DNA of 64,000 nucleotides from Candidatus Parvarchaeum acidiphilum ARMAN-4. GTDB taxonomy: Archaea > Nanobdellota > Nanobdellia > Parvarchaeales > Parvarchaeaceae. Below, in pieces: positions 8,571-60,840 of this stretch. Both the position numbers and the translations under genes were made by a program. Below the pieces are notes generated by a model, which saw only the letters and a program-made list of their open reading frames with translations, did no database searches and was not told the DNA's origin. The DNA lies in contig GG730040.1 of NCBI GenBank assembly GCA_002412065.1, positions 2,311 to 66,310 of the forward strand, written 5' to 3'. The first letter of the stretch is position 1. Each line of letters opens with the position of its first letter.

Positions 8571-8669
8571 GCATTATTTTATTTTTTATTTTTTTTACTT
8601 TTATTCTTGGTGAAAAAAGGAAAGATTTATATACTTCTTTATTGCTAAGTATTATGTAGGTGATAAATT

Positions 8670-9467: not shown

Positions 9468-9529
9468 TGTCGTAAAAAGTCTGTGAATAGTTAGCATTTA
9501 ATATTTAGAATTTTTTTAGATAGTTAAAT

Positions 9530-12500: not shown

Positions 12501-12855
12501 GTTTTCATCAGGTTTGGATATTGCGGTTGAGCTTCCAAATAAACGTGTAAGAAATATAAGAGGGTTAAGCGGAGGAGAACTTTCAGTGCTTGCTATATCT
12601 TTGATAATGGCATTGTCAAAATACACAGACGCAGTTTTCTATGTTCTAGATGAGGTGGATGCAGCTTTGGATGCTATCAATGCAGGAAATTTCTCTGCAC
12701 TTGTCAAGGCATATTCTGATTCATCACAGTTTATAATAATCTCTCACAATGAAACGACTCTTATAAATGCAGATGTAATATACGGTGTAACGATGAATGA
12801 CCAAGGGATAAGTAGGGTTGTACGTGTAAAAATGCCAGAGCAGAGCAATCAATAG
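9530..12855 (+). pseudogene. smc: SMC chromosome segregation ATPase disrupted into three ORFs (9530..10678, 10669/10819..11139, 11140/11179..12855) by a frameshift near 10660-10680 and an in-frame TAA at 11137-11139. May be an assembly error rather than a true pseudogene
   Basis: N-terminal head with Walker A GANGSGKSN. A hinge fragment ends ...ARQCIDKLK, then a TAA, then DKLGFYTFIPITT, which is the GRATFLPL-like hinge motif in the same frame. The C-terminal head has the signature LSGGELSVLAISLIMAL and Walker B FYVLDEVDAALD. The frame-1 reading is open from 10669 once the frame is shifted at the A5 run 10661-10665. Confidence 0.85.
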
Positions 12856-17299: not shown

Positions 17300-18166
17300 T
17301 TACCCATTTATCAAATCAAATAAAGTATCTAACTGTGCCCTTTTTGCTTCAATCTGTGCCTTCATTTTCTTATATTCATCTTCACTTATTTTACCAGAAA
17401 CAAAATTTCTTTCTAAGTCTGCAGATTCCTTCTCTATCTCTCTTAATTTGGTGTTTAGTTTGGTTGATCCTTGCGGCCCCATCGAAAGACTATTTGACAC
17501 ATTGTTTGCCAATTGTCGTTTATCTAATTTATTTCCATATTTTCTTGACAGTTCACTATACATTTCTGTCATATCTCCTTCCAATTTAGAATATGAGTCT
17601 TTATCCTTGAATTTACAGTCTCCTGCAAGAACTACTCTAACATTTGCGGATTCTTCTGTTGGGTCATAAACACCTATTATTTTTGCCCACAGGAATATTG
17701 GAACAATCTTTTTTATTTCAAAAAACAACAAAGCAAGCACAAAAAACGCTATCATTCCGTAAAGTACTAACGCAGATGACGAATAGCTAAAGTGCGTTAT
17801 ATTAGTGTAGATATTTGTTCTGTATGAGACTAAAAGTAATGCTAAAAGGATTACGCCGATTATAAGGCATGCTTTCCAGGCAATTGGGTATTTTGAGCCT
17901 TTTTTATTATCTTTCGCGCTTTTCAATAGTGCCCTTATAGGTTTTGCGTTTCCTCCGCGAAAGGTTTCTTCTAATTCATTATCTTGGAATTTTGCAAGTT
18001 CATTTAGTAATATCTTATAATCCATATCTGTCATGTATTCAGATACTTGGTTTCTTAATACTTGTGGATCATCACTTTTAATGTAAAGATCATAGAACAC
18101 ATGTCTTTTCTCTAATTCTTGAGTATCAAATTCTTTTTCGTAGTTCTTTATGCTGAAGCCAATCAT
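17300..18166 (-). CDS. membrane protein with C-terminal SHOCT-like motif
   Basis: Two central TM helices. The C-terminal SGKISEDEYKKMKAQIEAKRAQL resembles the SHOCT short C-terminal domain. Confidence 0.5.
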   Translation of the reverse strand: MIGFSIKNYEKEFDTQELEKRHVFYDLYIKSDDPQVLRNQVSEYMTDMDYKILLNELAKFQDNELEETFRGGNAKPIRALLKSAKDNKKGSKYPIAWKACLIIGVILLALLLVSYRTNIYTNITHFSYSSSALVLYGMIAFFVLALLFFEIKKIVPIFLWAKIIGVYDPTEESANVRVVLAGDCKFKDKDSYSKLEGDMTEMYSELSRKYGNKLDKRQLANNVSNSLSMGPQGSTKLNTKLREIEKESADLERNFVSGKISEDEYKKMKAQIEAKRAQLDTLFDLING

Positions 18167-25975: not shown

Positions 25976-25987
25976 ATTATTAAATAA

Positions 25988-26058
25988 GCCTCCGACGGGT
26001 GCTGGCCCCGCGACCTTCTGCTTACAAGGCAGACGCTCTACCGCTGAGCTACGGAGGC
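25988..26058 (-). tRNA. tRNA-Thr (anticodon TGT) with non-canonical T-loop
   Basis: Minus-strand sequence GCCUCCG-U-A-GCUC-AGCGGUA-GAGC-G-UCUGC-CUUGUAA-GCAGA-AGGUC-GCGGG-GCCAGCA-CCCGU-CGGAGGC. The cloverleaf folds, with UGU at positions 34-36 and discriminator U. The T-loop GCCAGCA deviates from the UUCRANY consensus. Confidence 0.7.
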
Positions 26059-34091: not shown

Positions 34092-34775
34092 ATGTTAGAT
34101 AATCGTAAAGGTCAGTACTCTGTAGAATACACGATAATAATTGGTATTGGACTAAGCATTATTGCAGCATTTTTAATATATATCACCTTTTTTTACGGTT
34201 CTTTTTCATTGAGTTCATCAGCAAGTCAGATAAAAACTTTATCCGATACAATTGCAAATCATGTTAACTATATAGCCTCAGAAGGTCCAGGGTCTATGCA
34301 AACCTTTCCAATAACCCTTCCATTGTTGCAACAACAATATTCTTTTTTCTGTGGGGATATAATAAAATTGCAGACAACTACAGAATTGGGCGTTTCTAAA
34401 CCTGGTGAAAACGTGTCAGGGATGTTACCTTTAACGAGCGGAACATTTGATGCATTTGCACGAGCTGAAAATGGTAGTGCAATAATTGGGCTTCGTTTCT
34501 TAATTTCATATGTTCTTGGGTCTTACTCAGTTTCTTCTAATACCCTGTCTTATTCCCTTTCTTTTTATAACTACTCTGGGGATCTTAAAGGAACGGCTTT
34601 TAATATTTCATTGTTGTCTACAGGGGGGGCTTATATAACAAGTGCAAAGTCATCTACTACTTCAGGTCAGGCCTCAGGCACCCTCACATTGCCTTCTTCA
34701 GCCCCTGTTGAATATGTGCTTGAAGTTACTCCATCCGGATCGGGAGATTATTATTCTACTTGCGTAACGGGGTAA
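34092..34775 (+). CDS. archaeal type IV pilin-like protein (class III signal peptide)
   Basis: N-terminus MLDNRKG|QYSVEYTIIIGIGLSIIAAFLIY is a basic region, then a Gly at -1 and a hydrophobic helix. The mature domain is Ser/Thr-rich. Confidence 0.7.
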   Translation: MLDNRKGQYSVEYTIIIGIGLSIIAAFLIYITFFYGSFSLSSSASQIKTLSDTIANHVNYIASEGPGSMQTFPITLPLLQQQYSFFCGDIIKLQTTTELGVSKPGENVSGMLPLTSGTFDAFARAENGSAIIGLRFLISYVLGSYSVSSNTLSYSLSFYNYSGDLKGTAFNISLLSTGGAYITSAKSSTTSGQASGTLTLPSSAPVEYVLEVTPSGSGDYYSTCVTG

Positions 34776-37167: not shown

Positions 37168-38271
37168 TCACTCCTCCTTTTGTAGATATTTATCCTTTAT
37201 TTCTTTGTCTGTCTGCTTTAATAAATCTTTATCTATTATAGGTTTTGCCTCGCCCTTAGTTTCTCTTATTTTATCTATTATAGAAGTTATCTTTTCTACT
37301 AAATATTTACTGTCTTTAAGCTTCTTATCAAAGTCCTCTCCAGTTATTGTTTTTACCTCTCCGTGATCTATCTTTTTGAACCATTTCACTATTTCTTCTA
37401 CTTTTTCAGCGTCTTCTTTAGTAAGGACCTTCTCTTTTGTTACTGCTATTTCATCTAATTCTTTTGCTACTTGTTTAGGCACAGGAGGCAGATATCCATA
37501 CTCCATTAAGAGTGCCTGCCCGGCTGAAACTACTGAATTATAAAGATCAAGGCTTAATTTTGTAGTTAATACATTTTCAGCAAGCATTATAAGGCCCTCT
37601 GCGCTTTCTATATTATTGTTTATAGACTCTTGTGTTGGCACTATATTACCAGTTTTATACAGCATTTGTATCGGAACGAAAAAGCCAGTATCATAGACTG
37701 CTACACCGTCTCTTAATAATGTAAGTATAACTGGATTAGGTTTTATTATAGATCCCCAAAATTCTGATAGAGGGTATGCCTGTGCATGTATCTTATCAGA
37801 GAAATCCCTTGCTATCTCTGCCATTTTTGCAAATAATCTGTCCCTTAACTGTTCCAAGGTGAATTTTTGTATGTCTGTGTCATCTACTATAAATGCTATG
37901 TCTATATCAGATGTGCTTGTCATTCCAGTTTTTGTTTTTGAACTGCCGAATATCACAATTGATTTTATGTATCTTCTAAAAAGACTCAATACCCGTAGGA
38001 AATAAGCCCTTATTGAATTGGCGTCTTTAGATGGAAGAACTTTGTTTAGAACATCAAATGATAAGCCAGCAAGCTGTCCTGGAGGTTCTACTGATTCAGC
38101 GTTTTCACCTTCTCCAACTTCTAAGCCTATAAAAGAACCCATGTAATCTACTCTCTCGTTAAGTTCATCTATCTTTGATGATAGTGCGTCTATAGTTGAA
38201 AAAAGCTTGTTTAAAGTTGCTTCTATCGGGTTTATATTCTCAGTTTGATGCATAATACCTCCATTTATCAA
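37168..38271 (-). CDS. Pol-beta-superfamily nucleotidyltransferase domain protein (N-terminal coiled coil, central minimal NTase, helical C-terminal region, KE-rich tail)
   Basis: IVIFGSSKTKTGMTSTSDIDIAFIVDD matches the GS-x(9-13)-DxD NTase motif. Its stop lies 1 nt from the rpl35ae start on the same strand. Confidence 0.6.
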   Translation of the reverse strand: MINGGIMHQTENINPIEATLNKLFSTIDALSSKIDELNERVDYMGSFIGLEVGEGENAESVEPPGQLAGLSFDVLNKVLPSKDANSIRAYFLRVLSLFRRYIKSIVIFGSSKTKTGMTSTSDIDIAFIVDDTDIQKFTLEQLRDRLFAKMAEIARDFSDKIHAQAYPLSEFWGSIIKPNPVILTLLRDGVAVYDTGFFVPIQMLYKTGNIVPTQESINNNIESAEGLIMLAENVLTTKLSLDLYNSVVSAGQALLMEYGYLPPVPKQVAKELDEIAVTKEKVLTKEDAEKVEEIVKWFKKIDHGEVKTITGEDFDKKLKDSKYLVEKITSIIDKIRETKGEAKPIIDKDLLKQTDKEIKDKYLQKEE

Positions 38272-38416: not shown

Positions 38417-40147
38417 ATGAACGTAAGAGAAATAAGTCAAATAGCAAAAAAATTTGCAGAGCCATCTACAAATGTTGGTTATCTAGAGCAATGGATAAGG
38501 GAATTAGAAGCCAGAGCCTCTAGTAGCGATTCTCATTATAGAGGAGAAATAGACTTTAGGTACGCTTCTCAGGAAGAATTACCGGATCCGGGGTTTGTTG
38601 GAAATGCAGCAGGTTATCATTTCACTAAGGATATACTAAAAAGATACCATTTTCAGCCAGAGTATTACTCTGTAATGCAGATGTTCGCAGCAATAGGTTA
38701 TAAACCACTTAGACTTGCAGAATCAGTAGATCCATCAGCTTTATCAAGCTTGATGAGTATGGCATTTGAAAAGCGAAAAAATCTAGAAGACAGGGTTATG
38801 CAGCTTTTAGGAACTATAAATACAATCTTAAAATCTCTCGTTTCCACAATTAATTCGCTTACAGAGCTTGATAGAAATCTTTATTTTTATGATGAATTAA
38901 AAGACCATGATAAAGAGAAATCGGAAGCAGCAGAATTGGCATTAAAAAGGATATTCCTTGATGTTGTTGACGCTAGAAAAGGGGGAGCAAGTCTTTCGGC
39001 ACTTTCAAGATCTCCTACACAAAGTCAGGGTGGCCCGGGTTTCATAGATATAATGTCAGTTTTCTATCAGGTAAAAAGCCTTAAGGATATTCAGCAGATT
39101 GATAGAAATGAACAGTACAAAAATATACTTAAGAACAGGTATATAGAATATGAAAAATGGAAGGAGATAAACGGAAATGAACTTCGACGCAGGAAATCGC
39201 TTTATTTAGAGTATCTTAAGAGCCAGATGGGTTCATTTAATCTATATGTGGATTGGTGTTCTAGTTATCTTTCAATTCTTTCAAAAATGGGCTGGAATAC
39301 GATTACTAAGGCAAAGGATTACTTTAATAAGGCTTCAAAGCCGGATATATTCGAAAATCAAAGCTTTTCCGTTACGGCGTTTGCATATAAATCAATTTAT
39401 GCAGGAGAGTACACAGCGGAATATGTAAAGCTGTTTAAAAGTAAAGGCCCGGAAATCCCTATACATGTAGAACCTAAAAGTCTGGCAGGCAATCTTAGCG
39501 CAAGAGGGTACGAGGAGCATAAAAGGTCCTTTATTTATGACAGGATAAAAAAATATGGGCCTCTTGTTATAGCAGGTGTAAAGCTACAGATGGATTTTAA
39601 AGAAAAACCAAGTAAGGAGCCAATACAACCGCCTTACGAAGGGACTATTTACTTTAATCTATTTCCGTATTGTTTTACTCCCGAAGAATTTTATCTTTAT
39701 AAGAAAGCTCAAATATCAAAGATACAGAAGACTGTATTCGCTTCTGTTGACCAGACCGTTTTTAATTCTTTAAGCGTCATAAAAAAGGATCTAGACAAGT
39801 ACGTTAAAGAAGCCGAGGAAGAAGAAAAAGCAAAGTCAAAGGAGAAAAAGCCGCAAAAGGATTACGCTTTCTTAGATATTTATAGGGCCTTTAAAGATGA
39901 TATCTCAGGCGTTTCAAAGTCTTTTTCAAGTATTGCTCCCTCAGAAAAGCATAAAACCAGATTTGACGAAGACCAGGCAGAGATATATGAAATGCTTGTT
40001 AATTCCAAACGTTTTGGTAGTATAAGTATTAAAAGAGCGCTTGAAATGGGTTTATTTATCTCAAATAGCGATTCAACATATATATACGATGAGCTTAAGA
40101 GAAGAGTTGGTCTGCTTAATTGGAAGGCCCCTTTTTCGGTGAATTAA
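38417..40147 (+). CDS. large hypothetical protein (576 aa), no recognisable domain. First gene of a cluster of small pilin-like genes
   Basis: Clean ORF with no P-loop, TM helix or signal peptide. Followed directly by 4 tiny membrane/pilin-like ORFs. Confidence 0.55.
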   Translation: MNVREISQIAKKFAEPSTNVGYLEQWIRELEARASSSDSHYRGEIDFRYASQEELPDPGFVGNAAGYHFTKDILKRYHFQPEYYSVMQMFAAIGYKPLRLAESVDPSALSSLMSMAFEKRKNLEDRVMQLLGTINTILKSLVSTINSLTELDRNLYFYDELKDHDKEKSEAAELALKRIFLDVVDARKGGASLSALSRSPTQSQGGPGFIDIMSVFYQVKSLKDIQQIDRNEQYKNILKNRYIEYEKWKEINGNELRRRKSLYLEYLKSQMGSFNLYVDWCSSYLSILSKMGWNTITKAKDYFNKASKPDIFENQSFSVTAFAYKSIYAGEYTAEYVKLFKSKGPEIPIHVEPKSLAGNLSARGYEEHKRSFIYDRIKKYGPLVIAGVKLQMDFKEKPSKEPIQPPYEGTIYFNLFPYCFTPEEFYLYKKAQISKIQKTVFASVDQTVFNSLSVIKKDLDKYVKEAEEEEKAKSKEKKPQKDYAFLDIYRAFKDDISGVSKSFSSIAPSEKHKTRFDEDQAEIYEMLVNSKRFGSISIKRALEMGLFISNSDSTYIYDELKRRVGLLNWKAPFSVN

Positions 40148-40149
40148 TT

Positions 40150-40323
40150 ATGAACAGCAAAGGACAAATGCCAACAACTGAGATTATAGCAATAATACTT
40201 GCCATAATAGTACTTTCAGCAGGTATTGTAATAGCAATTCTATTTAAAGGGGCTGGAGCGACAATCTCTAAGGATATGACTAATGTTTTTTCCTTCAGCT
40301 GGCTTTACGGTAAGGGCATATGA
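40150..40323 (+). CDS. small pilin-like protein (class III signal peptide)
   Basis: Starting at the internal Met: MNSKG|QMPTTEIIAIILAIIVLSAGIVIAILF. Confidence 0.5.
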   Translation: MNSKGQMPTTEIIAIILAIIVLSAGIVIAILFKGAGATISKDMTNVFSFSWLYGKGI

Positions 40324-40490
40324 GCGAAAAAGGAGTTGTAAGCGGTATTTTTCTTTATATTATATTGATAATAATCGGTATATTACTAATAATCTTTTTT
40401 CTAGAGATCTTTACACCTTACAAGTTTACAGATCTTTTTAAGGCGTTTATATCAAAGTCAAACACCTTGAATGTGAGTAATTATGATTAA
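40320..40490 (+). CDS. small pilin-like/membrane protein (56 aa)
   Basis: MSEKG|VVSGIFLYIILIIIGILLIIFFLE. The ATG overlaps the previous stop (ATGA). Absent from the ORF track because it is under 60 aa. Confidence 0.45.
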   Translation: MSEKGVVSGIFLYIILIIIGILLIIFFLEIFTPYKFTDLFKAFISKSNTLNVSNYD

Positions 40491-40632
40491 TATGAATAAA
40501 AAAGGGGTAGAAAGCTACATTTTGCTTGTTATAATAACATTAATAGTACTGATTCTAATAGTTATATTCTACCTTTTTCTTTTCTCTCCAGGTACACTGC
40601 ATAAACTCATTCCTTCGGTGCCAATTATATAA
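40483..40632 (+). CDS. small pilin-like/membrane protein (49 aa)
   Basis: MINMNKKG|VESYILLVIITLIVLILIVIFYLF. Confidence 0.45.
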   Translation: MINMNKKGVESYILLVIITLIVLILIVIFYLFLFSPGTLHKLIPSVPII

Positions 40633-40633
40633 C

Positions 40634-40795
40634 ATGGAAGCAATTTGGTTTTATGTAATTGCTATTATCCTAGGGATAACTTTAGTTATCGTTTATATCC
40701 TGTTTGTAGGGCCTTCTGCATTGTCAAAAGATATCTCCGGGTTTTTTACAAGTATAAGCTCATCGATAACATCGGGATTTAAGAACGCATATTAA
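40634..40795 (+). CDS. small membrane protein (53 aa)
   Basis: MEAIWFYVIAIILGITLVIVYILFVG is a single TM helix followed by a Ser-rich tail. Confidence 0.4.
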   Translation: MEAIWFYVIAIILGITLVIVYILFVGPSALSKDISGFFTSISSSITSGFKNAY

Positions 40796-40827: not shown

Positions 40828-41403
40828 ATGATTACTTATAGTGAATTTCTTAGAATAAGAAGACAGGAACAGGAAGACAGCAGAACTCTTACAAAGTTCA
40901 CGGATGAAATGCTAGAAGAGATGAAAGAGTACATTGCAATAAATAAAAACTCACTGGAAGAAGCAAAGAAAATGAATGATGAGAAGAAGACTGAAGAAAT
41001 ATCTACACAGATAAAAAATGCAATATCTACCCTAGAACAAATAATAAATTTAAGGTTGCTTAAAATTGCAAGCATGTCAATATTAGATGCGGATAGTGAG
41101 CAGGCAAAAGCAAACATGCTTTCAAAGGAGATAATCCTATTTGATAATCTACTTGTTTTGTCTAAAGAACATAAAGCTGGAATAATAAACGAATTAAAAT
41201 TTATAGAGCCAAAAAAGCTGCAGAAAGTAGAAAGCGAGGATAGTGATGGCGAAAAAGTGGTAATAAAAATTCTTTCGGATATACCTAAATTTGTATGGAG
41301 AAATGATAAGTCCTATGGCCCATTCAGTTTTCCAAATATAATTGAAATAGACAAGGATGTAGCACAGATATTGATAAAAAGCGGTAAAGCCGAGAGTGCA
41401 TAA
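40828..41403 (+). CDS. GINS subunit (Gins51/Gins15-like)
   Basis: Helical N-terminal A-domain, then a beta-rich C-terminal B-domain (VVIKILSDIPKFVWRNDKSYGPFSFPNIIEIDKDVAQILIKSGKAE). Confidence 0.55.
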   Translation: MITYSEFLRIRRQEQEDSRTLTKFTDEMLEEMKEYIAINKNSLEEAKKMNDEKKTEEISTQIKNAISTLEQIINLRLLKIASMSILDADSEQAKANMLSKEIILFDNLLVLSKEHKAGIINELKFIEPKKLQKVESEDSDGEKVVIKILSDIPKFVWRNDKSYGPFSFPNIIEIDKDVAQILIKSGKAESA

Positions 41404-42930
41404 ATGACATTTTTCAAGGAAGAAATAGAGAATAGAGAATACCAAACTAAAATATTTGAAACAGCAAAGACGGGTAATACACTTGTAGTGTTGCCAACCG
41501 GTCTAGGTAAAACAATAATAAGTGCAATGCTAGCAAATTATCGTTTGGAAAAGTACCCCTCATCTAAAGTGCTTTTTCTGGCCCCTACAAAACCTCTTGC
41601 AAATCAGCATTACAGAACCTTCTCTTCATTGCTTTCGCTTAAACAAGGTATGGCCAGCGGTTCCGTTTCAAGTAGTAGTAGAGGAAAAATCTATGAAGAT
41701 GCTCAGATAATATTTGCAACACCACAGACAATCGAGAATGACATGGAAAAAAAAGTTATAGATTTTTCTGATTTTAGCCTTTTAATAGTTGACGAAGCAC
41801 ATCATGCAATAGGAAATTATTCATATGTTAAAATCGCAAAATTGTACTCAGAACAGTCCTTTCATCCGCTTTTGTTGGGTCTTACTGCTTCCCCAGCATC
41901 AGATAGAGAAAAAATAAAGACAATATGTAGTAATCTTCATATAGCAAATGTTGAGATTCGCTCAGATGATGATCAGGATGTTATACCTTATATACAAAAA
42001 AAGGAAATAAACGAAATAAAAGTTGATTTACCCCCAAAATTAATTGAATTGTCTAATGATATAAAACTTCTCATTAGCGAGTCAATAAGTGAGTTACAAG
42101 AAACAGGGTTGCTAAAAAACACACAGAAAAGCAGAATAAATAAGGTGACTATTCTTTTACTTCAAAAAAGCCTTCAAAGGCAAATGTTGAGTGGTAAAAG
42201 AAATTATTATCTTATCAGAGGGATAATAATTACCTCCAAGCTTTTGAAGCTTTATCATGCTTATAACCTGCTTTCAACTCAAAGTCTTACTGCTTTTCTT
42301 AATTTTTTGGAAAAGATACAAAAAGGAAAAGCAAAGACAGATAAAGAGCTTTCATCTAATAGCAGGTTTATTGAAATAACTAAACGAACTTCTGAATTAG
42401 TAGAGCAAGGAATTGAACATCCAAAATTAAAGCAGCTTGAATCAATTTTTTCTAATTACTTCAATGAAGAGAAAAAAGCGATAATCTTTGCGCAGTATCG
42501 TGACACAGTGGATGTTATATGCAATAGTATATCAAATCTACCAGGGGTAAGGCCTATAAAATTTATAGGACAAGGTAAAGGAGGGCTATCACAAAAAGAG
42601 CAGGTAAATATAATAAAGGATTTTGAGTCGGGAGTATACAATGTTCTTGTTTCCACCAGCGTTAGTGAAGAGGGCATGTCAATAAAAGGCGTGGATATTG
42701 CAATTTTTTACGAAACCATACCTAGTGCGATAAGAAACATACAAAGAAGAGGGAGGGTTGGCAGATTTTCAGCAGGCAGTATCTTTATACTAATAACCAG
42801 AGGCACCAACGATGAAGGCTATTATTGGCTTTCTAAAAAAAGAGAAAAGACAATGAAAAATATAATAAAGAACATAAAAGAAAATCCAAACACAATAAAA
42901 CAAGATGGGACACTACACCCTTTTATTTAA
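41404..42930 (+). CDS. hef: Hef/FANCM-like superfamily 2 helicase (helicase domains only, no ERCC4 nuclease domain)
   Basis: REYQTKIFETAKTGNTLVVLPTGLGKT (Q motif and Walker A), DEAH box LIVDEAHHAIGN, SAT-like LGLTASP, and helicase C-terminal motifs QRRGRVGR. Confidence 0.8.
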   Translation: MTFFKEEIENREYQTKIFETAKTGNTLVVLPTGLGKTIISAMLANYRLEKYPSSKVLFLAPTKPLANQHYRTFSSLLSLKQGMASGSVSSSSRGKIYEDAQIIFATPQTIENDMEKKVIDFSDFSLLIVDEAHHAIGNYSYVKIAKLYSEQSFHPLLLGLTASPASDREKIKTICSNLHIANVEIRSDDDQDVIPYIQKKEINEIKVDLPPKLIELSNDIKLLISESISELQETGLLKNTQKSRINKVTILLLQKSLQRQMLSGKRNYYLIRGIIITSKLLKLYHAYNLLSTQSLTAFLNFLEKIQKGKAKTDKELSSNSRFIEITKRTSELVEQGIEHPKLKQLESIFSNYFNEEKKAIIFAQYRDTVDVICNSISNLPGVRPIKFIGQGKGGLSQKEQVNIIKDFESGVYNVLVSTSVSEEGMSIKGVDIAIFYETIPSAIRNIQRRGRVGRFSAGSIFILITRGTNDEGYYWLSKKREKTMKNIIKNIKENPNTIKQDGTLHPFI

Positions 42931-43397
42931 TTGCCAGTTATCTCAGTCTCGCAAGTTCCACCAGCAGAGTATTTTACTCCGTCTATAGAAACATTGCTAC
43001 CAGAGGTATTACCTATTATTATAGTATTAATACTTGGGTCTTTAATGGTGAAATCACCTGAGAATGAATTAATTCCTGCGGTATAATTACCTATTCTGTA
43101 TATATTAGAAGGGTTGCCATTTAAGTTACTTGCAAATACACTGTAGACTAATCCTGGGCTCCCATCTGATACAACTATCTTGAATCTATTTTGTTGAGAT
43201 GATGTGCTTATATTTGTTACATTAGCGTTGCATGGTGCAGGAGATCCGCTTCCACTATTTACTATTCCAGAGGGTAATATAGCAAAATGAAATACTGAGC
43301 TGGCTATAACTACTCCTATTATTAAAAATGAGATTAAAAGAATTATAACTATGAAATAATCAACCAAACTTGTACCTTTTAATTTGTTACTGCGCAT
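42927..43397 (-). CDS. pilin-like protein (class III signal peptide); last gene of a surface-protein operon
   Basis: From the internal Met: MRSNKLKG|TSLVDYFIVIILLISFLIIGVVIASS. The mature part is Gly/Ser/Asn-rich with a single Cys pair. Confidence 0.6.
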   Translation of the reverse strand: MRSNKLKGTSLVDYFIVIILLISFLIIGVVIASSVFHFAILPSGIVNSGSGSPAPCNANVTNISTSSQQNRFKIVVSDGSPGLVYSVFASNLNGNPSNIYRIGNYTAGINSFSGDFTIKDPSINTIIIGNTSGSNVSIDGVKYSAGGTCETEITGN

Positions 43398-44863
43398 ATA
43401 TAAACTAAATTTCTCCCCAAAAAGTTTGGTTTTGATATCCCTATCTGCTGAGGCAGGGAAGCAACGAAGTAGATTAAAGACTGTGCACATTGCTCTAATC
43501 CTGTAGCGTACAAAGCCGAATAAGCAATTTTGCCGGCATATGTAACTGCGTTAGGTGCAATATCATCCTTACATATAGAGTTATTAAAGCATTCTGCAGT
43601 TCCGAATCCTGCAAGTCCTATTCCTACTAGCAATCCAGGATTTGATGGCGCAAGAAGATCAGCGCCTATTCCCGATGCAACTGCTCTTGAACATTCATCT
43701 TCTATCCCCGAACTAGGGTAATTGTTAAGGAATGTAGCAGGTTCACATTCACTTGGCAAGCTTATTGAACTAGGAGGGAGTCTTGTGCCAGCAAGAGAAT
43801 TTAAATAGACTATGTATATCTGGGCTTTGTTGATTGATTTGCTGCTGTTCGGAAGCACAAATCCACTGCTGCTTGCGTTGCTCAAATTTTTATAGCTGAA
43901 TATAAGATTATCTCCAGGTCTTAAGTAAGTCGCATATGATTCATTTACTATAGAAGTGCTTTTTACTGGCTCAGTCAAAACACAGGAAGATGGTGCTTCA
44001 TATGAATTTGTAGTACTGTCATACCCTACAGTACAATTATTTCCATTACAGAAGTTAGTATACAGGTCTGTACAAGAATCAGTTTTACCGCTAATTGTTG
44101 AACATGTGTCCAAGGTGGTGTTAAAGGAACAGCCTTGTGATTCTTCGCATAAATCACTAGATATATTCATTGCAGCTGTAGGGGGTTTTGAACCATTTAA
44201 AGGAATATACTTTGTTGCAGTATATCCTTGTGTAAATGGCTGGTAACCAGGTTCGCTTCTACAGTTAAAATAATTAGATGACTGGGCCTCGCATATACTA
44301 GGATTGCTTAAATCACATGTAAATCCGTTTAAATTTGTGCTAGTTAAAGGATCAGAGCAGGACTGCACTGAAGTATGATTAAGGCAACTAACTTCAGTAG
44401 TATAAGCATTGCTTTCAAGATAAGTTGTAAGGTTATTTATTGTAAAGTTTTTATTTATATTTACATTAATAGCTGCACATGTTGCAGGGGAACTAGTAAG
44501 TACAGTCAAACCTTGGTTTGCACCATACTGGTTCCAACAGCTGGCTAAATCAGTTGCTACTGTTGAGAATACTTGAGATGGCTGGGCGCTAGGCCCATAA
44601 CCGGAAGTTGAAGTAGTGCATCCGAAAAGAGGAGGAGCTATTCCCAGAGCCTTAAGTGTACCACTTAAACAAAAGAATTTTGATACGCAAAGCCCGTTAT
44701 AATAAAAATTAGTGAATTCAGAACTTGCATAGCATATACCGCTGTTTGAAAGCGTTATTCCTACTATTAAAAGATAGCCGGCAATTGCTACTATTACAAC
44801 TATGAATATTACTGCTAAGATTATAAATAAAATACTCTCTCCAGGTGTTTCTGCCATAATCAA
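43379..44863 (-). CDS. large membrane-anchored Ser/Thr/Cys-rich surface protein (494 aa)
   Basis: N-terminal TM anchor (ILFIILAVIFIVVIVAIAGYLLIVGI), ~25 Cys, many N-x-S/T sequons and low-complexity Ser/Thr/Asn. Confidence 0.65.
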   Translation of the reverse strand: MIMAETPGESILFIILAVIFIVVIVAIAGYLLIVGITLSNSGICYASSEFTNFYYNGLCVSKFFCLSGTLKALGIAPPLFGCTTSTSGYGPSAQPSQVFSTVATDLASCWNQYGANQGLTVLTSSPATCAAINVNINKNFTINNLTTYLESNAYTTEVSCLNHTSVQSCSDPLTSTNLNGFTCDLSNPSICEAQSSNYFNCRSEPGYQPFTQGYTATKYIPLNGSKPPTAAMNISSDLCEESQGCSFNTTLDTCSTISGKTDSCTDLYTNFCNGNNCTVGYDSTTNSYEAPSSCVLTEPVKSTSIVNESYATYLRPGDNLIFSYKNLSNASSSGFVLPNSSKSINKAQIYIVYLNSLAGTRLPPSSISLPSECEPATFLNNYPSSGIEDECSRAVASGIGADLLAPSNPGLLVGIGLAGFGTAECFNNSICKDDIAPNAVTYAGKIAYSALYATGLEQCAQSLIYFVASLPQQIGISKPNFLGRNLVYICAVTN

Positions 44864-44920
44864 TTAGTGTTTTTATTTAATAAATTAATATCTTGTTCAA
44901 TAATTTCACTCAAATTGTTT

Positions 44921-45811
44921 TTATTGTCCGGGTATACAAACGAATACTCTGCTTTGGCTGTATATCATGTAATTGCTTAATTTGCCACATAAAGGCACAT
45001 AATAGTCACACCCACTCGTTTCATTTACTACATTTAAAGAGGGGTTGCCATTACTAAGCGAGCTTACGGTTTCCCTAGTTTGGTTTGTAGTCTCATTTGA
45101 GTATGCGCATATAGCTAAGTTGTTTATTTCAGGTTGTTGGTATCTTGCAACGTATTTGCATTGGTCTGTAAAGCTTATATCGCAGTTTTTAATTCCATTT
45201 GAAGGATAACCAAAGTAAGTTACAGTATAACTTGAGTTTGAAAGGTTATCAGAAGGATTGATATAAGCAGCGTTTCCATTGCTTCCGTTTGTTATAAACA
45301 CCATTTGGAGAGGATAATTTCCATTGTAATTACTGTCGATATCACTTATAATAGATGAATAATTTAAATTTTTACTTTGGCTGATAATTGACCCTTTGTA
45401 ACAGTTAAATATTTGGTCTAGATTACTAGCTGATAGAATTTGAGACCCTATTACAGCGTTACTACCTGAGAATAAACTAAAACAGGAAGAGGCTTCAGTA
45501 TAAAATAAAGATGCAAAATTTGTGCTACCCTGTTCGTCTATATTTGAGGACTGGAGACATTCTTTTTGTACTTGTGCGGACTGCGTTGGGCTTACTAATA
45601 TATTCGAAAGCCCAAAAAATGAAGCTGCACTAGTTAGAGGAGATAAAAACGTGTTTACTATCTTATACTGTGTAAATGCCGTAAAGCAACTTAATCCAAA
45701 GTTCAATGTCCCGAAGGAAGTAATAAGGGAAAAAGATACAACTGCAAGTACTATACCCGCCACTATAACAAGTATAACAAAAGCTATTGTTAATAGGATG
45801 CCCTCCTCCAT
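44921..45811 (-). CDS. membrane-anchored Ser/Asn-rich, Cys-containing surface protein (296 aa)
   Basis: N-terminal TM (ILLTIAFVILVIVAGIVLAVVSF), multiple Cys and N-glycosylation sequons. Confidence 0.6.
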   Translation of the reverse strand: MEEGILLTIAFVILVIVAGIVLAVVSFSLITSFGTLNFGLSCFTAFTQYKIVNTFLSPLTSAASFFGLSNILVSPTQSAQVQKECLQSSNIDEQGSTNFASLFYTEASSCFSLFSGSNAVIGSQILSASNLDQIFNCYKGSIISQSKNLNYSSIISDIDSNYNGNYPLQMVFITNGSNGNAAYINPSDNLSNSSYTVTYFGYPSNGIKNCDISFTDQCKYVARYQQPEINNLAICAYSNETTNQTRETVSSLSNGNPSLNVVNETSGCDYYVPLCGKLSNYMIYSQSRVFVCIPGQ

Positions 45812-45972
45812 TACGAGCCACCGCCCAGCAGATTTCCAAAATATGCAAATGGAGAACTACTATGAGAACTTGCATAAAATAGGATTATCACTAGTCCTAT
45901 GATAGCTACAGCTGTTATTATAACTAGAATCAACCATATAATCCTCCATTCTACGCTTCCTTTATTATTCAT
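45811..45972 (-). CDS. micro membrane protein (53 aa) with class III-like N-terminus
   Basis: MNNKG|SVEWRIIWLILVIITAVAIIGLVIILFY. Its stop overlaps the next ATG (TAATG). Tightly packed between 45974..46483 and 44921..45811. Confidence 0.4.
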   Translation of the reverse strand: MNNKGSVEWRIIWLILVIITAVAIIGLVIILFYASSHSSSPFAYFGNLLGGGS

Positions 45973-45973
45973 A

Positions 45974-46483
45974 TTACTGTCCTATGCATGCTGCACAATA
46001 AGGCCCGTCCCCAGATATGCATGCAGGCACATTTATTGCACAGTTTTGTATGTCTGTTGCGTTGTTTGCTACTATCGTACTCTCAGAACAACTAAATAAA
46101 TCGGCCGTATTAGTTGGAGATACAACACTACATGCGCTTGTTATATTTGCAGGAGGGCTGGCCATGCACGATTCTACTAAAGAGGTGTTCCCTTGTCCAT
46201 TAACCCAATAATCATAATAACACCAATGTCGGATACAGGTCTGCACTGCTGTAGCCGCGTTGAAACATGCATTTTCATCATAGCAACGAAAAAGTGCTGT
46301 ACCCTCCATCCTATTTGGATATCCATATTCTGCGCTTGTGAACTGGTTCTGTAGTAAAGCGGTGGAAGTATCGCATCCTACTGGGAAAATAGAGGAATAA
46401 TTATTGTAAAACAGAAAGAACATAGTAAGTGCTATAACTATCCCGATAATGACTTCAAAGAATAGAAACTGTTCAACATCCAT
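45974..46483 (-). CDS. membrane-anchored cysteine-rich protein (169 aa, ~18 Cys)
   Basis: N-terminal TM (FFEVIIGIVIALTMFFLFY), then a Cys-dense domain (CYDENACFNAATAVQTCIRHWCYYDYW...CAACIGQ). Confidence 0.6.
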   Translation of the reverse strand: MDVEQFLFFEVIIGIVIALTMFFLFYNNYSSIFPVGCDTSTALLQNQFTSAEYGYPNRMEGTALFRCYDENACFNAATAVQTCIRHWCYYDYWVNGQGNTSLVESCMASPPANITSACSVVSPTNTADLFSCSESTIVANNATDIQNCAINVPACISGDGPYCAACIGQ

Positions 46484-47006: not shown

Positions 47007-47444
47007 TCAATTGATTATATTTCCGTTTGATGCTATGACTGGAGAGTATGAAATATTAGTTGGGGTATAATATATATAGCCGTTTCCACTGAAAGAACTT
47101 CCTAATGAGACCGAAGTTAAATTGCATTCTGTAGACTCTAAAGCAGGAAGATATGTTTTTGAGCATACAAAGTTGGTGTAATTTACTCCGGATATTATCA
47201 TTGATATCCCATCTATTTTTATATTCTCATTTAACAGGTTTTGGAATTCAATATAAAATGTAGATTTTGAAGGGATATAACCCTGCTGCAATACACGGAA
47301 ACCGGAGAATCCTGAATAACTTGGAGTTGATGTAGTCCCTGTCAGAGACGGGAAAAAAGTAAATATTATGTAAAAGATTGATGCTATTACTATTATAGCT
47401 ATCCCATACATTAGCACCATCTCAAGTGATTCCTGTGCTCTCAT
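47007..47444 (-). CDS. pilin-like protein (class III-type signal peptide)
   Basis: MRA|QESLEMVLMYGIAIIVIASIFYIIFTFF followed by a Ser/Thr/Asn/Tyr-rich beta-type domain. Confidence 0.55.
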   Translation of the reverse strand: MRAQESLEMVLMYGIAIIVIASIFYIIFTFFPSLTGTTSTPSYSGFSGFRVLQQGYIPSKSTFYIEFQNLLNENIKIDGISMIISGVNYTNFVCSKTYLPALESTECNLTSVSLGSSFSGNGYIYYTPTNISYSPVIASNGNIIN

Positions 47445-47721: not shown

Positions 47722-47907
47722 TTAAGTCGTGAATGTTTTAAATTCCGCTTGCTTTTTGTTGATGTCTTTTTTATAAGTTTCATTGCTTACTGTATGGTTT
47801 TTAACCGTGAATGTCCTCCCGCAATAGAAGCATTTTACTTCTTTTAAAGCAGAAGTTTTTCTGTATTTACCGCATTTAGGGCACTTAACAATCCTGTAAA
47901 CAGTCAT
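47722..47907 (-). CDS. small zinc-ribbon protein (61 aa)
   Basis: CPKC...CFYC in a basic protein. Translationally coupled to the upstream minD-like gene (ATGA overlap). Confidence 0.5.
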   Translation of the reverse strand: MTVYRIVKCPKCGKYRKTSALKEVKCFYCGRTFTVKNHTVSNETYKKDINKKQAEFKTFTT

Positions 47908-48623
47908 ATTTTTATTAATTGCTTTGCTAGATTAGTTATATCCTTAGCAGCAAAGCTTTTTGGAGAAGACAAAACTAAAGGAACACCTATTTTTAATGCA
48001 TTATACACCTTTTTGTCATCCCTAATCCTCCATACGTTTTTTATTTCCATAAGGTCCTTTGTTTCTTTTTCTGTCATTTGATCTTTTATTCTGTTATTTA
48101 CTTTGTTTATTACAAGTCCAATTATATTGATATTTGCGTTTTCTAGTTCTTCTTTTAGTTTTTTAGCTTCTATTATAGAGGTTATATCCGGATTAGACAC
48201 TATAAGACTGCTGGCATTTTTGATTAGTTTTATAAAATTTATCTCATAAGACGGTCTTGAGTCTATTATTATGAAATCATATCTATCTTCAATCTTTTCA
48301 ATGTAACGGTTTATGTTTATTAGTTTGTTTGGCAGTCTGCTCTCTTCGGTTCTTGTTACCCTTGAAGGTAAAATGTGGAATTTGGGGTTATCTCCCATGT
48401 ATATGGCATTTTCAATTTCGGTTCTACCGTTCAATACATCTTCTAATGAGTACTTAAACCCAACAAAGCCATAATAAATCGCGACATGTGGAGTTTCTAG
48501 GTTTGCGTCTATAAGTAAGGCACTTTTATTTAATTCAGAAATAGCTGTAGCTAAGTTCACAGATGTAGTTGTTTTTCCTACACCGCCTTTTGGGCTCATC
48601 ACTACTATAATCTTAGCCGACAT
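47904..48623 (-). CDS. minD: MinD/ParA-family P-loop ATPase
   Basis: Deviant Walker A IVVMSPKGGVGKTTTSVNLA. Walker B-like FIIIDSRP. Confidence 0.85.
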   Translation of the reverse strand: MSAKIIVVMSPKGGVGKTTTSVNLATAISELNKSALLIDANLETPHVAIYYGFVGFKYSLEDVLNGRTEIENAIYMGDNPKFHILPSRVTRTEESRLPNKLININRYIEKIEDRYDFIIIDSRPSYEINFIKLIKNASSLIVSNPDITSIIEAKKLKEELENANINIIGLVINKVNNRIKDQMTEKETKDLMEIKNVWRIRDDKKVYNALKIGVPLVLSSPKSFAAKDITNLAKQLIKI

Positions 48624-54964: not shown

Positions 54965-55618
54965 ATGAAAGGCCAGTTTTCATTTGAATTCATGATAGAT
55001 GTTGCATTTGTTTTAGTTCTAATAGCCTTCATAGCAGTTTTCTTTGCGCATATCTCCGCTGGAAATCCAACGGTTTCAGATATGAATGGGATTTGTTATG
55101 AGATGGCCGATTCAATAAATTCCATGGCAAACTCCAATGGTTTTCAAACTATACAGTACTTGCCGTTACTTACATTTACAAAACAGGAGAATTACACAAT
55201 AAACGTTTCAAATGGAATAATAATAATATATGAAAAGTCACTTTATGGAGGAAAATTACTTGCAGGGCAGGATTTAACTTCATGCGGTGCAGATACTGCG
55301 CTCACAGAAAATGAATCATTTGGTTTATCAAATCTTGTTTTGTATACAAACCAAACAAACATTGCATTGGCCTATGCTTATGCCAATTACTCCGGCAACC
55401 TCCCAAATTACATCTTTGTAGGCGGATTTACAGGTGCGGTTAATTTGTCATTGGACTATTCAAATGGTACTATCACTACATTAGATGTTCAGAATTCGCC
55501 ATTTACATACTTTGCAGATACAAAATCTATTCCATTACCGGCTGGTGTTTATAATTTTGTAGCAACTAGCGTGGCCTCTCCTGACATTTACGTCGATTTG
55601 CCTTTTTCAGTCGGTTAA
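54965..55618 (+). CDS. archaeal type IV pilin-like protein (class III signal peptide)
   Basis: MKG|QFSFEFMIDVAFVLVLIAFIAVFFAHI. The mature domain is Asn/Thr/Tyr-rich. Confidence 0.7.
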   Translation: MKGQFSFEFMIDVAFVLVLIAFIAVFFAHISAGNPTVSDMNGICYEMADSINSMANSNGFQTIQYLPLLTFTKQENYTINVSNGIIIIYEKSLYGGKLLAGQDLTSCGADTALTENESFGLSNLVLYTNQTNIALAYAYANYSGNLPNYIFVGGFTGAVNLSLDYSNGTITTLDVQNSPFTYFADTKSIPLPAGVYNFVATSVASPDIYVDLPFSVG

Positions 55619-55685: not shown

Positions 55686-56162
55686 ATGGCAAAAGGACAG
55701 TCAGCATTAGAATACATGATGACTTATGGTTGGGCAATACTAATCATAGTTATCGTAGCTGTAATCTTGTATTCTATGGGAATTTTCAACCCTAGAGCAA
55801 GTGTAACTGCAACAAGTAGTGGGTTCAGCCCATTCGCAGCAAGTGCAGCAGTCTGCAGTAGCAGTAGTAGTAAATTAACAGTAGCTTTTACTGTTGGTGG
55901 ACTACCTAACGGAGCTTCTTCTGCAACCATAACTGGAGCAAGTTACTCGTCTGGAAGTGGAATTAGTCCGGCTATTAACTCTGGCACAGCAAGCCCAACG
56001 GTGGTGTCTTCTGGTAGCAGCTTTAATGTAACCTTCAGCACTGTAACATGTACACCAGGGGTTGGATTTAGTGCTTCTGGTGTAGTGAACTACTCCGTTA
56101 CAACAGCAGCAGGTACTGCAACTTACTCTGCAACAGGAACAATAGCAGGAACAGGCAGCTAA
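55686..56162 (+). CDS. archaeal type IV pilin-like protein (class III signal peptide), Ser/Thr/Ala/Gly-rich
   Basis: MAKG|QSALEYMMTYGWAILIIVIVAVILYS, then a low-complexity S/T/A/G domain. Confidence 0.7.
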   Translation: MAKGQSALEYMMTYGWAILIIVIVAVILYSMGIFNPRASVTATSSGFSPFAASAAVCSSSSSKLTVAFTVGGLPNGASSATITGASYSSGSGISPAINSGTASPTVVSSGSSFNVTFSTVTCTPGVGFSASGVVNYSVTTAAGTATYSATGTIAGTGS

Positions 56163-59076: not shown

Positions 59077-60840
59077 ATGAAACTTGAAGAAACTCTTTCA
59101 AATGAGGATTACTTAAAAAATGTTATTCATAAAGTGAGTATTTTAGGTCCAGACATAATACCTACAATAGAAAATACCGTTTCAAAATATAATGGATATG
59201 CAGCTAAGTCAGTTGCTTTCAGTTTGCTAAATCTTGCTTATTACAAAAAAGATAAGGACATAACCTTAGAGATATTGCACACTATTGACAATTATAGCGG
59301 AGTTGTAGGAGAATATATGCTAGATCATATTGTCCGTTTCGCAAATATTATCCAAGATAAAAATACAATAATAAATTTTGCTAGAATAATGTCGCTTAAA
59401 AAGGTAGTAAATACGCTAAATATGTATAAGAGCAATGCTTCTGAAATCATCGTTTGGAATTCTTTAAAACTGGCTAAAGACATGGTTTTATACAAATCAG
59501 AAGTTAGTAATCTAAACTATAATTTAAGTGATCCGACATTGCAAGCCTTTAATTTTAATAACTTTATTGATATAATGTCAGATCAAACTATAGTTGATAC
59601 TATTGAAAAATATAAAGGAGAAAATATAAAAGAAGTTGCAAAAGAATTAGTAAAAATTGCTTTTAGGACTAGATCTACTGGAGCGGTTATTGCTGCTTGT
59701 AATATAGCAAAAACTGTGGGGTTGAATGCTTTTGAATTTCTTTCATCACGCGATTTTATCACTATATCTGAGGAAGGATTAGATAAACTTATTAATGACA
59801 CAAAAAGTTTTGATTCTGTATTGCCTTATCTAAAATCTAATGGTGAACTTCCAAAGCCTACTAAGTACAATATAAATAAATACCAGGACATAGCTAATGA
59901 ATACCTTTCAAGTTCTTATAACATAAATAAAAAACTTAATTTAAATCAGATACTTATGCTGTTTTCAGTTAATGATCATGATAGAAAAGATGTAATAAAT
60001 CTTGTGAATAACTCAATAGAAACAAACTCAAAACTTTATTCTTTAGTTAGTGGGGGGGATCCAAAATTGGATATAGATAAAGAAAAATTGTCATATCTAT
60101 TGTTGATAGCAGTAACTGGCTCAAGGGACAAAAATATAGAGCAAGAAGCTTTTAATTTTCTTTCTAAAATAGTTGGAGAGAGCGTTGTTAGAAAAGCTAA
60201 GCATTCTTTTAATTCTCAATATAAAGCAAAATTAATTGGTGATATCTCAAATTATGTTAAGAATGGAGATGTAAACAGCGCAATAAACCTGTTAAAAGAT
60301 ACTAAAGATGAAAGTATAAACGATATTTTATCTGTAGCAGGGTATAAAGACGGAGATTTAATTATTGCCGGGAAAAATACTGTCTTGTCTACGCAAAGCA
60401 ACAATCCATTAGATTACGACAGCAGATTACAAATTGCATGTGTTTATCTTCCAAGTGATTATGAAGGAGGCATAGAAGCATACTGTAAAGACAAAAGGTT
60501 TAATCTCATAAGATATGATATAAACGGTAAAAGTTTAGGCAGCGCAATTTGTTACCTTGAAAATGGAGTTTTTCTTGTTGACTCTGTAGAAGGACATAGG
60601 ACATTTCGAAAACCTAATGTATTCTCTATAGTTTATCAAGATTTAATAGATAGAGCTAAAGAGAACAGGGCAAAACAGATTATATTCAACACAACAGGCA
60701 GAAATGAAACCCCTCAAGAATTTATAAATTACGTTAAAAAAATAAATTTTAATAAAGGCAATACAAAAATGAACTTAAATACCAATGGTAACCTAGAAGC
60801 AAAAAGGTCTTTTGTATCCGGTTATATTGTAAACTTATAA
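59077..60840 (+). CDS. large hypothetical protein (587 aa)
   Basis: Clean ORF, Asn/Lys/Ile-rich, with no motif recognised. Confidence 0.45.
   Translation: MKLEETLSNEDYLKNVIHKVSILGPDIIPTIENTVSKYNGYAAKSVAFSLLNLAYYKKDKDITLEILHTIDNYSGVVGEYMLDHIVRFANIIQDKNTIINFARIMSLKKVVNTLNMYKSNASEIIVWNSLKLAKDMVLYKSEVSNLNYNLSDPTLQAFNFNNFIDIMSDQTIVDTIEKYKGENIKEVAKELVKIAFRTRSTGAVIAACNIAKTVGLNAFEFLSSRDFITISEEGLDKLINDTKSFDSVLPYLKSNGELPKPTKYNINKYQDIANEYLSSSYNINKKLNLNQILMLFSVNDHDRKDVINLVNNSIETNSKLYSLVSGGDPKLDIDKEKLSYLLLIAVTGSRDKNIEQEAFNFLSKIVGESVVRKAKHSFNSQYKAKLIGDISNYVKNGDVNSAINLLKDTKDESINDILSVAGYKDGDLIIAGKNTVLSTQSNNPLDYDSRLQIACVYLPSDYEGGIEAYCKDKRFNLIRYDINGKSLGSAICYLENGVFLVDSVEGHRTFRKPNVFSIVYQDLIDRAKENRAKQIIFNTTGRNETPQEFINYVKKINFNKGNTKMNLNTNGNLEAKRSFVSGYIVNL

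Follow-up and report, generated by a model that had tools for sequence, protein, structure and literature searches.

The 64-kb stretch of DNA analysed here, hereafter the window, comes from Candidatus Parvarchaeum, an acid-mine nano-archaeon of the DPANN group; it is archaeal in character and AT-rich (~33% GC), and the genes neighboring the element under study include those for TFB, Trm1, ribosomal protein L35Ae, GINS and the Hef helicase. At positions 38417–40795 a 576-aa open reading frame (ORF), which we call HOM, is followed directly by four micro-genes (m1 to m4), all five exactly where the original prediction had placed them. We favor, on balance, the explanation that m1–m4 are one part of an eight-gene pilin-like array that was split by an inversion, the other part being four genes (w53, w296, w494 and w157) on the opposite strand beyond GINS and Hef, and that HOM is an unrelated neighbor. 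The genes concerned are given below; an arrow marks the predicted cleavage site, and H-domain denotes the hydrophobic helix.

37168–38253, − strand: nucleotidyltransferase (NTase) of the MNT type, ~361 aa from a conserved MHQTEN start; divergent from HOM
38417–40147, + strand: HOM, 576-aa ORF; cytoplasmic, DPANN-wide family, very probably outside the micro-protein module
40150–40323, + strand: m1, 57 aa; MNSKG↓QMPTTE, H-domain, conserved FSFSWLYG tail
40320–40490, + strand: m2, 56 aa; MSEKG↓VVSG, H-domain, conserved FTPYKF motif
40483–40632, + strand: m3, 49-aa ORF; NKKG↓VESY, H-domain, conserved FSP...P tail
40634–40795, + strand: m4, 53 aa; starts MEAIWFY in the window, (V/A)GP...DISxFF tail
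40828–41403, + strand: GINS, Gins51_C match; housekeeping, not a module member
41404–42930, + strand: Hef helicase, Hef match; housekeeping, not a module member
42927–43397, − strand: w157, ~156 aa; MRSNKLKG↓TSLVD, H-domain, predicted Ig-like ectodomain
43379–44857, − strand: w494, ~492 aa; Cys-rich, N-terminally anchored ectodomain protein, no Pfam match
44921–45811, − strand: w296, 296 aa; N-terminally anchored ectodomain protein, no Pfam match
45811–45972, − strand: w53, 53 aa, a fifth micro-protein; NNKG↓SVEW, H-domain, PF.YF tail

The five genes on the forward strand are tightly packed. The ATG of m1 lies 2 nt after the HOM stop and is preceded, at 8 nt, by a GGTGA motif; m1 shares ATGA with m2, m2 and m3 overlap or abut, and 1 nt separates m3 from m4. 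The second ATG of m3, at 40492, is the more likely start, giving 46 aa that begin MNKKG, because the orthologues begin MNNKG or MNKKG. All four micro-genes encode fewer than 60 aa, rather than three of them as first thought, and the basic N-terminus ending in Gly that had been ascribed to each is found in three; here m4 starts MEAIWFY. On the other strand, a gene for a 169-aa protein (45974–46483, −) adjoins the array genes; in two related loci (L086 and L088) the array does not include this gene. Together with w494 and w296 (43379–46483, −) this protein is Cys-rich, rich in Asn, Ser and Thr, carries many N-X-S/T sequons and lacks a known domain.

Conservation of the micro-genes in related genomes, on which the original prediction had staked their reality, was clear. 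In a scan that took one genome from each GTDB species, 80 loci were obtained, and the same four families follow HOM directly and in the same order in 24 Parvarchaeum-type loci besides the window; across these 25 loci the distance from the HOM stop to the m1 start is 2–7 nt. The cassette is kept while the identity of HOM falls from 79% to 44%. The median pairwise ratio of nonsynonymous to synonymous substitution (dN/dS) is 0.17, 0.11, 0.22 and 0.10 for m1 to m4, respectively, with synonymous sites near saturation (mean pS ~0.7). It is virtually certain that m1–m4 are genuine genes, since the same families recur in the same order in 25 loci and dN/dS is low.

Each family has its own signature. 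That of m1 is [KR][GA]↓[QE]MPx[TS]E...SFSWL(Y/F)G, the part around the site being present in 22 of the 22 unique orthologues; m2 is marked by FTPYK(F/I), m3 by F(S/A)P...P..P and m4 by (V/A)GP...DISxFF. A profile search with m1 retrieved 45 clusters of 48–67 aa, all from Parvarchaeota except one from Rehaiarchaeum. When m4 was compared with m1, m2 and m3, hhalign gave probabilities of 95–97%, figures that transmembrane (TM) composition inflates; by their sequence profiles, m1–m4 are paralogues of one another. Among the orthologues (L001 8228–8416, L019 and L023–L029) the N-terminus of m4 is polymorphic, with M..NKKG-VTEAT-IYY in deeper clades and ME(A/S)(I/V)WFY in the clade of the window; in an alignment the shorter start falls precisely on TEA in the longer form. 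Either the leader was lost in the window clade, or the true site lies after E-[AS]. The expectation that annotation would usually miss such genes proved wrong: gene callers report them in L001, and they figure in NCBI records as hypothetical proteins (such as BJBARM5_0302 of ARMAN-5, and M1494_02640). Neither HOM nor m1–m4 has a sequence match in Pfam, NCBIfam or PDB.

Gene order of the array across Parvarchaeales

The loci in which m1–m4 do not follow HOM are the most instructive. HOM lacks the cassette downstream in three Parvarchaeota loci (L003, L030 and L031). In L031, from a Parvarchaeota metagenome-assembled genome (MAG), a w494-like gene, a w157-like gene, m1, m2, m3, m4, GINS and Hef run co-directionally on the strand opposite HOM, with m1 7 nt after the w157-like gene and Hef converging on HOM. 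In the genome GCA_025920305, HOM is found on scaffold 11 (L030) and the array on scaffold 8 (L087), and the array loci of Rehaiarchaeum lack HOM. Nor is the cassette bound to GINS and Hef: both of these genes are gone in L021 and L029, yet it stays with HOM there. Thus the co-occurrence of HOM and the micro-genes, which the original prediction had proposed to check across related genomes, does not tie them together: HOM occurs alone across DPANN, and the cassette is detached in L031.

The same array was found in two further groups of loci, represented by L086 and L087 (two assemblies with the Acidifodinimicrobium-type order) and by L088 and L089 (Rehaiarchaeum fermentans). All four loci share the order of a 48–52-aa protein, a ~300-aa protein, a ~495-aa protein, a 137–147-aa protein, m1, m2, m3, m4 and GINS. 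In L031, L086/L087 and L088/L089 the array genes lie on one strand, with gaps of at most ~100 nt or overlaps. Orthology to the genes of the window was supported by BLASTP for w53 (E = 1e-14 in L086 and 9e-7 in L088), w296 (2e-53 and 7e-22) and w494, which occupies the same array position (38% identity, 5e-103 in L086; 31%, 2e-44 in L088); that of w157 was assigned by cluster membership and position. GINS follows m4 in L031, L086 and L088, and Hef does so as well in L031 and L088.

The common ancestors given by Rao et al. 2023 (PMC10134863) imply the tree (Rehaiarchaeum, (Acidifodinimicrobium, Parvarchaeum)). By parsimony, the ancestral order was co-directional: w53, w296, w494, w157, m1, m2, m3, m4. 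The adjacency of HOM and m1 is then derived within Parvarchaeum, because both non-Parvarchaeum genera have the co-directional order and Rehaiarchaeum is the outgroup. A single inversion of the segment m1–m4, GINS and Hef converts the order of L031 into that of the window. Such an inversion in the Parvarchaeum lineage very probably split the array into two convergent halves, and at the same time placed m1 2 nt behind HOM.

The 3' ends of convergent genes overlap at both types of junction, by 4 nt between Hef and w157 in the window (41404–42930 + and 42927–43397 −) and by 8 nt between HOM and Hef in L031 (3588–5297 + and 5290–6819 −), the second inversion junction type. Since these ends overlap, neither junction type leaves space for terminators.

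We therefore regard it as very probable that m1–m4 belong to the w53–w157 array and not to HOM. That m1–m4 make up, with w53, w296, w494 and w157, an array of eight genes which is specific to Parvarchaeales and encodes surface proteins anchored at the N-terminus is the account we find somewhat more convincing than its alternatives, a strength that applies to the best explanation as a whole.

The HOM family and its conserved neighbors

The close homologues of HOM are all "hypothetical" proteins of Candidatus Parvarchaeota or Parvarchaeum (the ARMAN-4/5 group), and its wider family extends much further. A profile search of 1.84 billion representatives returned 652 clusters, 443 of them at E ≤ 1e-10, and the genome scan placed the family in at least 148 species; the species listed are Parvarchaeota, Woesearchaeota, Pacearchaeota, Nanoarchaeota/Nanoarchaeia or unclassified archaea. 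Outside Parvarchaeales the homologues are ~500 aa long and never have micro-TM genes after them, and more than 50 loci of Woesearchaeota, Pacearchaeota and Nanoarchaeia contain HOM without micro-genes.

The lack of any recognizable motif in HOM, as first noted, was borne out by empty Pfam and NCBIfam searches. The only recurrent Pfam match, to the helical bundle T6PP_N, was dismissed as noise (E ≥ 0.05, in 13 of 33 members). The AlphaFold2 model, built from an alignment of 33 sequences (pLDDT 72.6, pTM 0.56), predicts a hairpin of two ~50-residue helices (residues 111–161 and 232–291) with small helices between them, and beta-sheets at residues 67–105 and 316–420. The most conserved element is a VDxxKGGxS loop between the long helices (D182, D185, K188, G189 and S192). 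No significant match to any family or fold was found in sequence or structure libraries. Remote homology and structure, to which the original prediction had looked for the nature of HOM, thus give it no known family or fold, and identified no housekeeping homologue. Makarova, Wolf & Koonin 2019 (PMC6393860) describe DPANN-specific families in a housekeeping context, among them cls.004259/NEQ050 (MNT fused to HEPN) and cls.004340/NEQ484 (alpha-helical). HOM may be the latter, which it resembles in being largely helical, DPANN-restricted, of housekeeping context and enigmatic.

The neighbors of HOM were clustered across 85 loci. Of 83 loci, 52 have the NTase beside HOM, which makes it the most conserved neighbor, and 42 have an AP2-like TIM barrel there. 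The NTase of the window shares 32% identity with its Nanoarchaeota orthologue (E = 2e-27), has weak matches to Polbeta and NTP_transf_2, both below cutoff, and fits the description of cls.004259/NEQ050 (PMC6393860), with which it was compared by description.

Across DPANN other than Parvarchaeales these genes make up an operon (L002 5566–11233; L004 6001–11560; L045 4731–10185; and most of L034–L085). It begins with a divergent 77–147-aa protein, in which an acidic linker joins an amphipathic, basic MGxFxFFKKK head to a coiled coil at the C-terminus, followed by HOM (~500 aa), an acidic protein of ~200 aa, a ~630-aa TIM barrel and the MNT-type NTase. The TIM barrel is xylose-isomerase-like (PF01261, E = 1e-10) with a long helical insert. 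Makarova, Wolf & Koonin 2019 (PMC6393860) give no description of an operon of HOM, NTase and TIM barrel, and the operon as a whole appears to be undescribed. HOM may well work with this NTase/TIM-barrel module, as its neighborhood suggests; it would then act in a housekeeping module with the NTase, the acidic protein and the TIM barrel, and not with the micro-proteins.

In the window, tblastn with the AP2-like, acidic and coiled-coil families found no member. The 587-aa ORF at 59077–60840, which has no Pfam match, was considered as the AP2-like TIM-barrel partner and set aside, as BLASTP shows no similarity. The Parvarchaeales NTase (37168–38271, −) is extended at its N-terminus by ~75 residues, which include a conserved coiled-coil-like segment (LNKLFSTIDALSSKIDELNERVDYM); other DPANN orthologues lack this extension (compared with L002 10370–11233). 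Opposite the R-x5-H stretch of the L002 orthologue (YRDLLMLH), the window NTase has VKWF. The extension might have been a fused copy of the small coiled-coil protein upstream of HOM, an idea that we rejected at hhalign probabilities of only 8–10%. A reading of the operon as a defense system was rejected as well: PADLOC gave no match to HOM, the acidic protein or the TIM barrel, and the NTases match only NTase/cyclase-type models of candidate systems, the window NTase at E ≥ 5e-4.

Class III-like features of the array

Several features of the array proteins recall the class III signals of archaeal pilins (criteria from PMC4371748). In members with a leader, [K/R][G/A/S] directly adjoins a hydrophobic helix longer than 20 residues. 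At −1, all m1, m2 and m3 orthologues, leader-bearing m4 and w53 have G or A, and w157 has G or S. The −2 residue is K or R in 22 of 22 m1 and in nearly all m3, w53 and w157; m3 has [KR][GA] in all but one of its 25 unique sequences, the exception being NQG. The leaders of m4 in deeper clades are NKKG, EKA or KDA. For w53 and w157 the agreement extends to the three-residue leaders of Rehaiarchaeum (MKG, MRG, MKA and MRS). In all four micro-families the leader is 3–8 residues long and the uncharged stretch 19–33 residues, and the maximal Kyte-Doolittle mean over 17 residues of the micro-proteins is 2.9–3.9. An acidic residue occurs at +2 to +6 in most sequences, most m2 being without it, and w157 always has D or E at +5 (KG↓TSLVD). 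Substrates of the peptidase EppA additionally have Q at +1 and E at +5 (PMC4371748); the +1 residue of m1 is Q or E, as in those substrates.

Profile comparison connects the array members. The hhalign probability is 91–93% for w53 against m2 and m3, and 82–93% for w53 and the N-terminus of w157 against the micro-families, while TM controls mostly stay below 12% with outliers at 27%, 35% and 55%. Judged from these profiles, an N-terminal module is common to m1–m4, w53 and w157. The predicted structure of w157 consists of a helix and an Ig-like sandwich; the sandwich is generic and does not discriminate for or against a pilin fold.

The window also encodes four textbook class III proteins of the QxSxE type (KG↓QYSVE, RA↓QESLE, KG↓QFSFE and KG↓QSALEY), with EppA/DUF361-type signals:

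34092–34775, + strand: canonical class III protein
47007–47444, − strand: canonical class III protein
54965–55618, + strand: canonical class III protein
55686–56162, + strand: canonical class III protein

At its N-terminus, the last of these shares 60% identity with a Rehaiarchaeum protein (L088 11340–11885) across 48 aa. Because these four proteins are encoded here, their sequences suggest that a class III processing pathway is in use in this organism.

A possible processing enzyme was found near the array in one lineage. In L086 at 8539–12006, and likewise in L087, two class III-like proteins of 317 aa (MHANKG↓ASGG...) and 293 aa (MFNRKA↓AGAG...) lie downstream of the array and GINS; after them comes an archaeal A24 prepilin peptidase, at a distance of ~4 kb from the array (PF01478, E = 3e-9; Arc_PepC, E = 2.6e-4). 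The 64-kb window has no counterpart of either class III-like protein or of the peptidase, and tblastn with the L086 peptidase found no A24 copy in it. The absence of canonical pilus machinery from this region, as first reported, was confirmed: Pfam scans covering most of the larger ORFs of the window detected no PilB/FlaI, PilC/FlaJ or A24 protein. Rao et al. 2023 (PMC10134863) reported pilin genes in all their genomes, and other pilus or archaellum genes, including flaHIJ, in at least some Parvarchaeales and Jingweiarchaeales MAGs. A MinD/ParA ATPase is encoded at 47904–48623 (−), and its orthologue flanks the array in L086.

Among the closest known systems are the short EppA-dependent (Epd) pilins of Methanococcus maripaludis. 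Its major pilin MMP1685 has 74 aa (62 aa when mature), and three further pilin-like proteins have 67–76 aa (54–63 aa mature), which is Flp-sized; the pilin genes are scattered over at least four loci, separate from those of the ATPase and the platform protein (Nair et al. 2013, PMC3875500). Like the Epd pilins (MMP1685/EpdE, MMP0528, MMP0903 and MMP1283) and, by size, the Flp/Tad pilins, the micro-proteins combine a short leader ending in G with an H-domain and a brief tail. The KG↓Q of m1 resembles the EppA sites KGQV and KGQI, and an early acidic residue is common to both. The two systems also share several paralogues per genome, a location away from ATPase and platform genes, and the company of larger pilin-like proteins (PMC3875500; PMC4371748). 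Unlike in Epd, the predicted mature micro-proteins would have 41–52 aa rather than 54–63 aa, their acidic residue occupies +2, +3 or +6 instead of +5 (the Q-M-P-x-[TS]-E of m1 being one residue longer than QxSxE), there is neither a DUF361 (PF04021) match nor profile similarity above controls, most array members lack an N-glycosylation sequon, and processing and filament formation are predictions.

The array can also be compared with minor-pilin and pseudopilin sets, as in the archaeal clade-1 type IV pilus loci with at least five minor pilins and large adhesins (Makarova, Koonin & Albers 2016). Shared features are the tandem of small class III-like proteins with larger secreted ectodomain proteins, fast-evolving, lineage-specific sequences, and the presence, farther from the array, of an A24 peptidase and an ATPase of the MinD/FleN type. 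In contrast to such sets, PilB/FlaI and PilC/TadC were not found in the array loci examined, five of the eight array members are essentially without a globular domain, and the two largest lack canonical class III sites.

A number of points weigh against a pilin-like nature of the array. About 5 of 24 m2 sequences lack a charged −2 residue, having N, Q, H or S instead (DNG, KQG, KHG and ESG). The m4 of the window has no K/R-G leader, although its ME[A/S] could be a [DE][AS] site. The N-termini of w296 and w494 are non-canonical, the charge bias across the helix is modest, and the model of w157 (pLDDT 66) matches generic Ig/FN3 folds and not pilins. Curated class III hidden Markov models (PF04021 and NCBIfam) did not match the micro-proteins even at E ≤ 10, a negative result that is uninformative because the canonical class III proteins of the window also fail (with PF04021, E = 0.03 for one and no match for three). 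The profile similarity of m1–m4 to these canonical proteins (0.2–53%) does not exceed that of unrelated TM controls (0.2–55%). None of the array loci examined has an assembly ATPase or a platform protein close by, and leader cleavage and a filament are predictions from sequence.

The evidence is about evenly divided on whether m1–m4 are A24-processed pilin-like subunits. The micro-proteins depart from the QxSxE/DUF361 signature in that the acidic residue of m1 is at +6 and m2–m4 lack Q at +1, and because of this deviation we keep them out of the DUF361 family. The most fitting description is that of a new variant, confined to this lineage, of class III-signal or minimal pilin-like proteins, with putative processing.

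Some observations elsewhere in the window may be added. SMC is apparently split over two or three consecutive ORFs (9530–10678, 10819–11139 and 11179–12855, all +), corresponding to the N-terminal part of the head, a 106-aa piece, and the hinge with the C-terminal part of the head; the gene may truly be split, or a frameshift or an error of assembly may be the cause. ScpA and ScpB are intact upstream (6346–7604). A third tRNA, at 25987–26058 (−), scores 58.6 bits with Rfam and is not reported by ARAGORN. A weak CdvA-like coiled-coil match lies at 17300–18166 (−; E = 4e-4, below cutoff), and a CDC48-type double AAA ATPase with a Vps4_C-like tail at 4053–6344 (+).

Competing explanations and their implications

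Two alternatives concern the micro-genes and HOM. That the micro-ORFs are chance open frames in the AT-rich spacer between HOM and GINS might be thought from their shortness, hydrophobicity, low complexity and want of a family match, yet it is practically excluded by a dN/dS of 0.10–0.22 at nearly saturated synonymous sites, by family motifs kept down to 44% HOM identity and into Rehaiarchaeum, by an order and coupling that survive the inversion, and by several annotation pipelines that call them independently. The original prediction saw in the locus a resemblance to a minor-pilin set with a dedicated accessory protein; the pilin-like set remains our leading hypothesis, while the accessory role of HOM, whose family is DPANN-wide and occurs without micro-genes, did not hold up. 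For HOM to be a dedicated cytoplasmic accessory, such as an assembly factor, a chaperone or a motor adaptor, encoded with m1–m4 in one five-gene operon, is very improbable. The gap of 2–7 nt between HOM and m1 in 25 loci does imply co-transcription and translational coupling, and the cassette remains with HOM in L021 and L029 despite the loss of GINS and Hef. However, a family of 652 clusters in at least 148 species has no micro-genes outside Parvarchaeales, the cassette is detached in L031 and on a separate scaffold in GCA_025920305, and Rehaiarchaeum has array loci without HOM. Moreover, the outgroup gene order makes the adjacency derived, the conserved partners of HOM are the NTase and the TIM-barrel protein, and if the micro-proteins are N-in, only ~5 cytoplasmic residues would be available for contact with HOM. 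The housekeeping role proposed for HOM instead is itself based on gene neighborhood alone, which counts against that part of our explanation.

A further alternative accepts the array and disputes the processing: the micro-proteins would be unprocessed bitopic membrane proteins in a membrane-embedded complex with, or assembling and anchoring, the Cys-rich w157, w296 and w494, as a Parvarchaeales-specific envelope or host-contact complex without type IV machinery. A stoichiometric complex would account just as well for the tight coupling and for membership in the array, and the distinct C-terminal motif of each family suggests four specific, non-interchangeable partners. The loci examined have no PilB or PilC close to the array, the profiles of the micro-families come no nearer to canonical class III proteins than controls do, and m4 lacks a basic leader in the window clade. 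Nevertheless, a K or R followed by a near-invariant G, A or S before the H-domain is kept from Parvarchaeum to Rehaiarchaeum, which a plain signal anchor would not need; the early part of the helix keeps an acidic residue, one lineage has an A24 peptidase close to the array, and short pilins are an established class. We consider an unprocessed complex doubtful.

If the pilin-like array is what these genes encode, Sec would bring m1–m4, w53 and w157 into the membrane, a short leader being left in the cytoplasm, and cleavage after [K/R][G/A/S] would be the work of an A24 prepilin peptidase. This would yield subunits of 41–52 aa, each an assembly helix with a tail of 15–25 residues, that would build or prime a thin pilus or a short pseudopilus-like surface structure, on which the ectodomains of w157, w296 and w494 would be displayed. 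A bolder version, in which the array is a Parvarchaeales-specific minimal type IV filament, with the smallest pilins known in any organism, by which these ultrasmall acidophilic archaea of the ARMAN-4/5 type attach to hosts, and HOM is a new fold in a core DPANN-wide module, seems unlikely to hold in full.

The locus illustrates how one inversion can make a misleading "operon", and the functional inference for HOM is corrected; its family is among the few DPANN-wide families that still lack a fold or function. If the micro-proteins are indeed processed pilins, the lower size limit of type IV subunits would fall below that of the short Epd pilins of Methanococcus.

Physical contact with host cells is essential to DPANN archaea, and little is known of the surface structures by which it is made. 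The strictly conserved, lineage-specific array of five micro-proteins and three ectodomain proteins offers a concrete and testable candidate for such a structure in Parvarchaeales.

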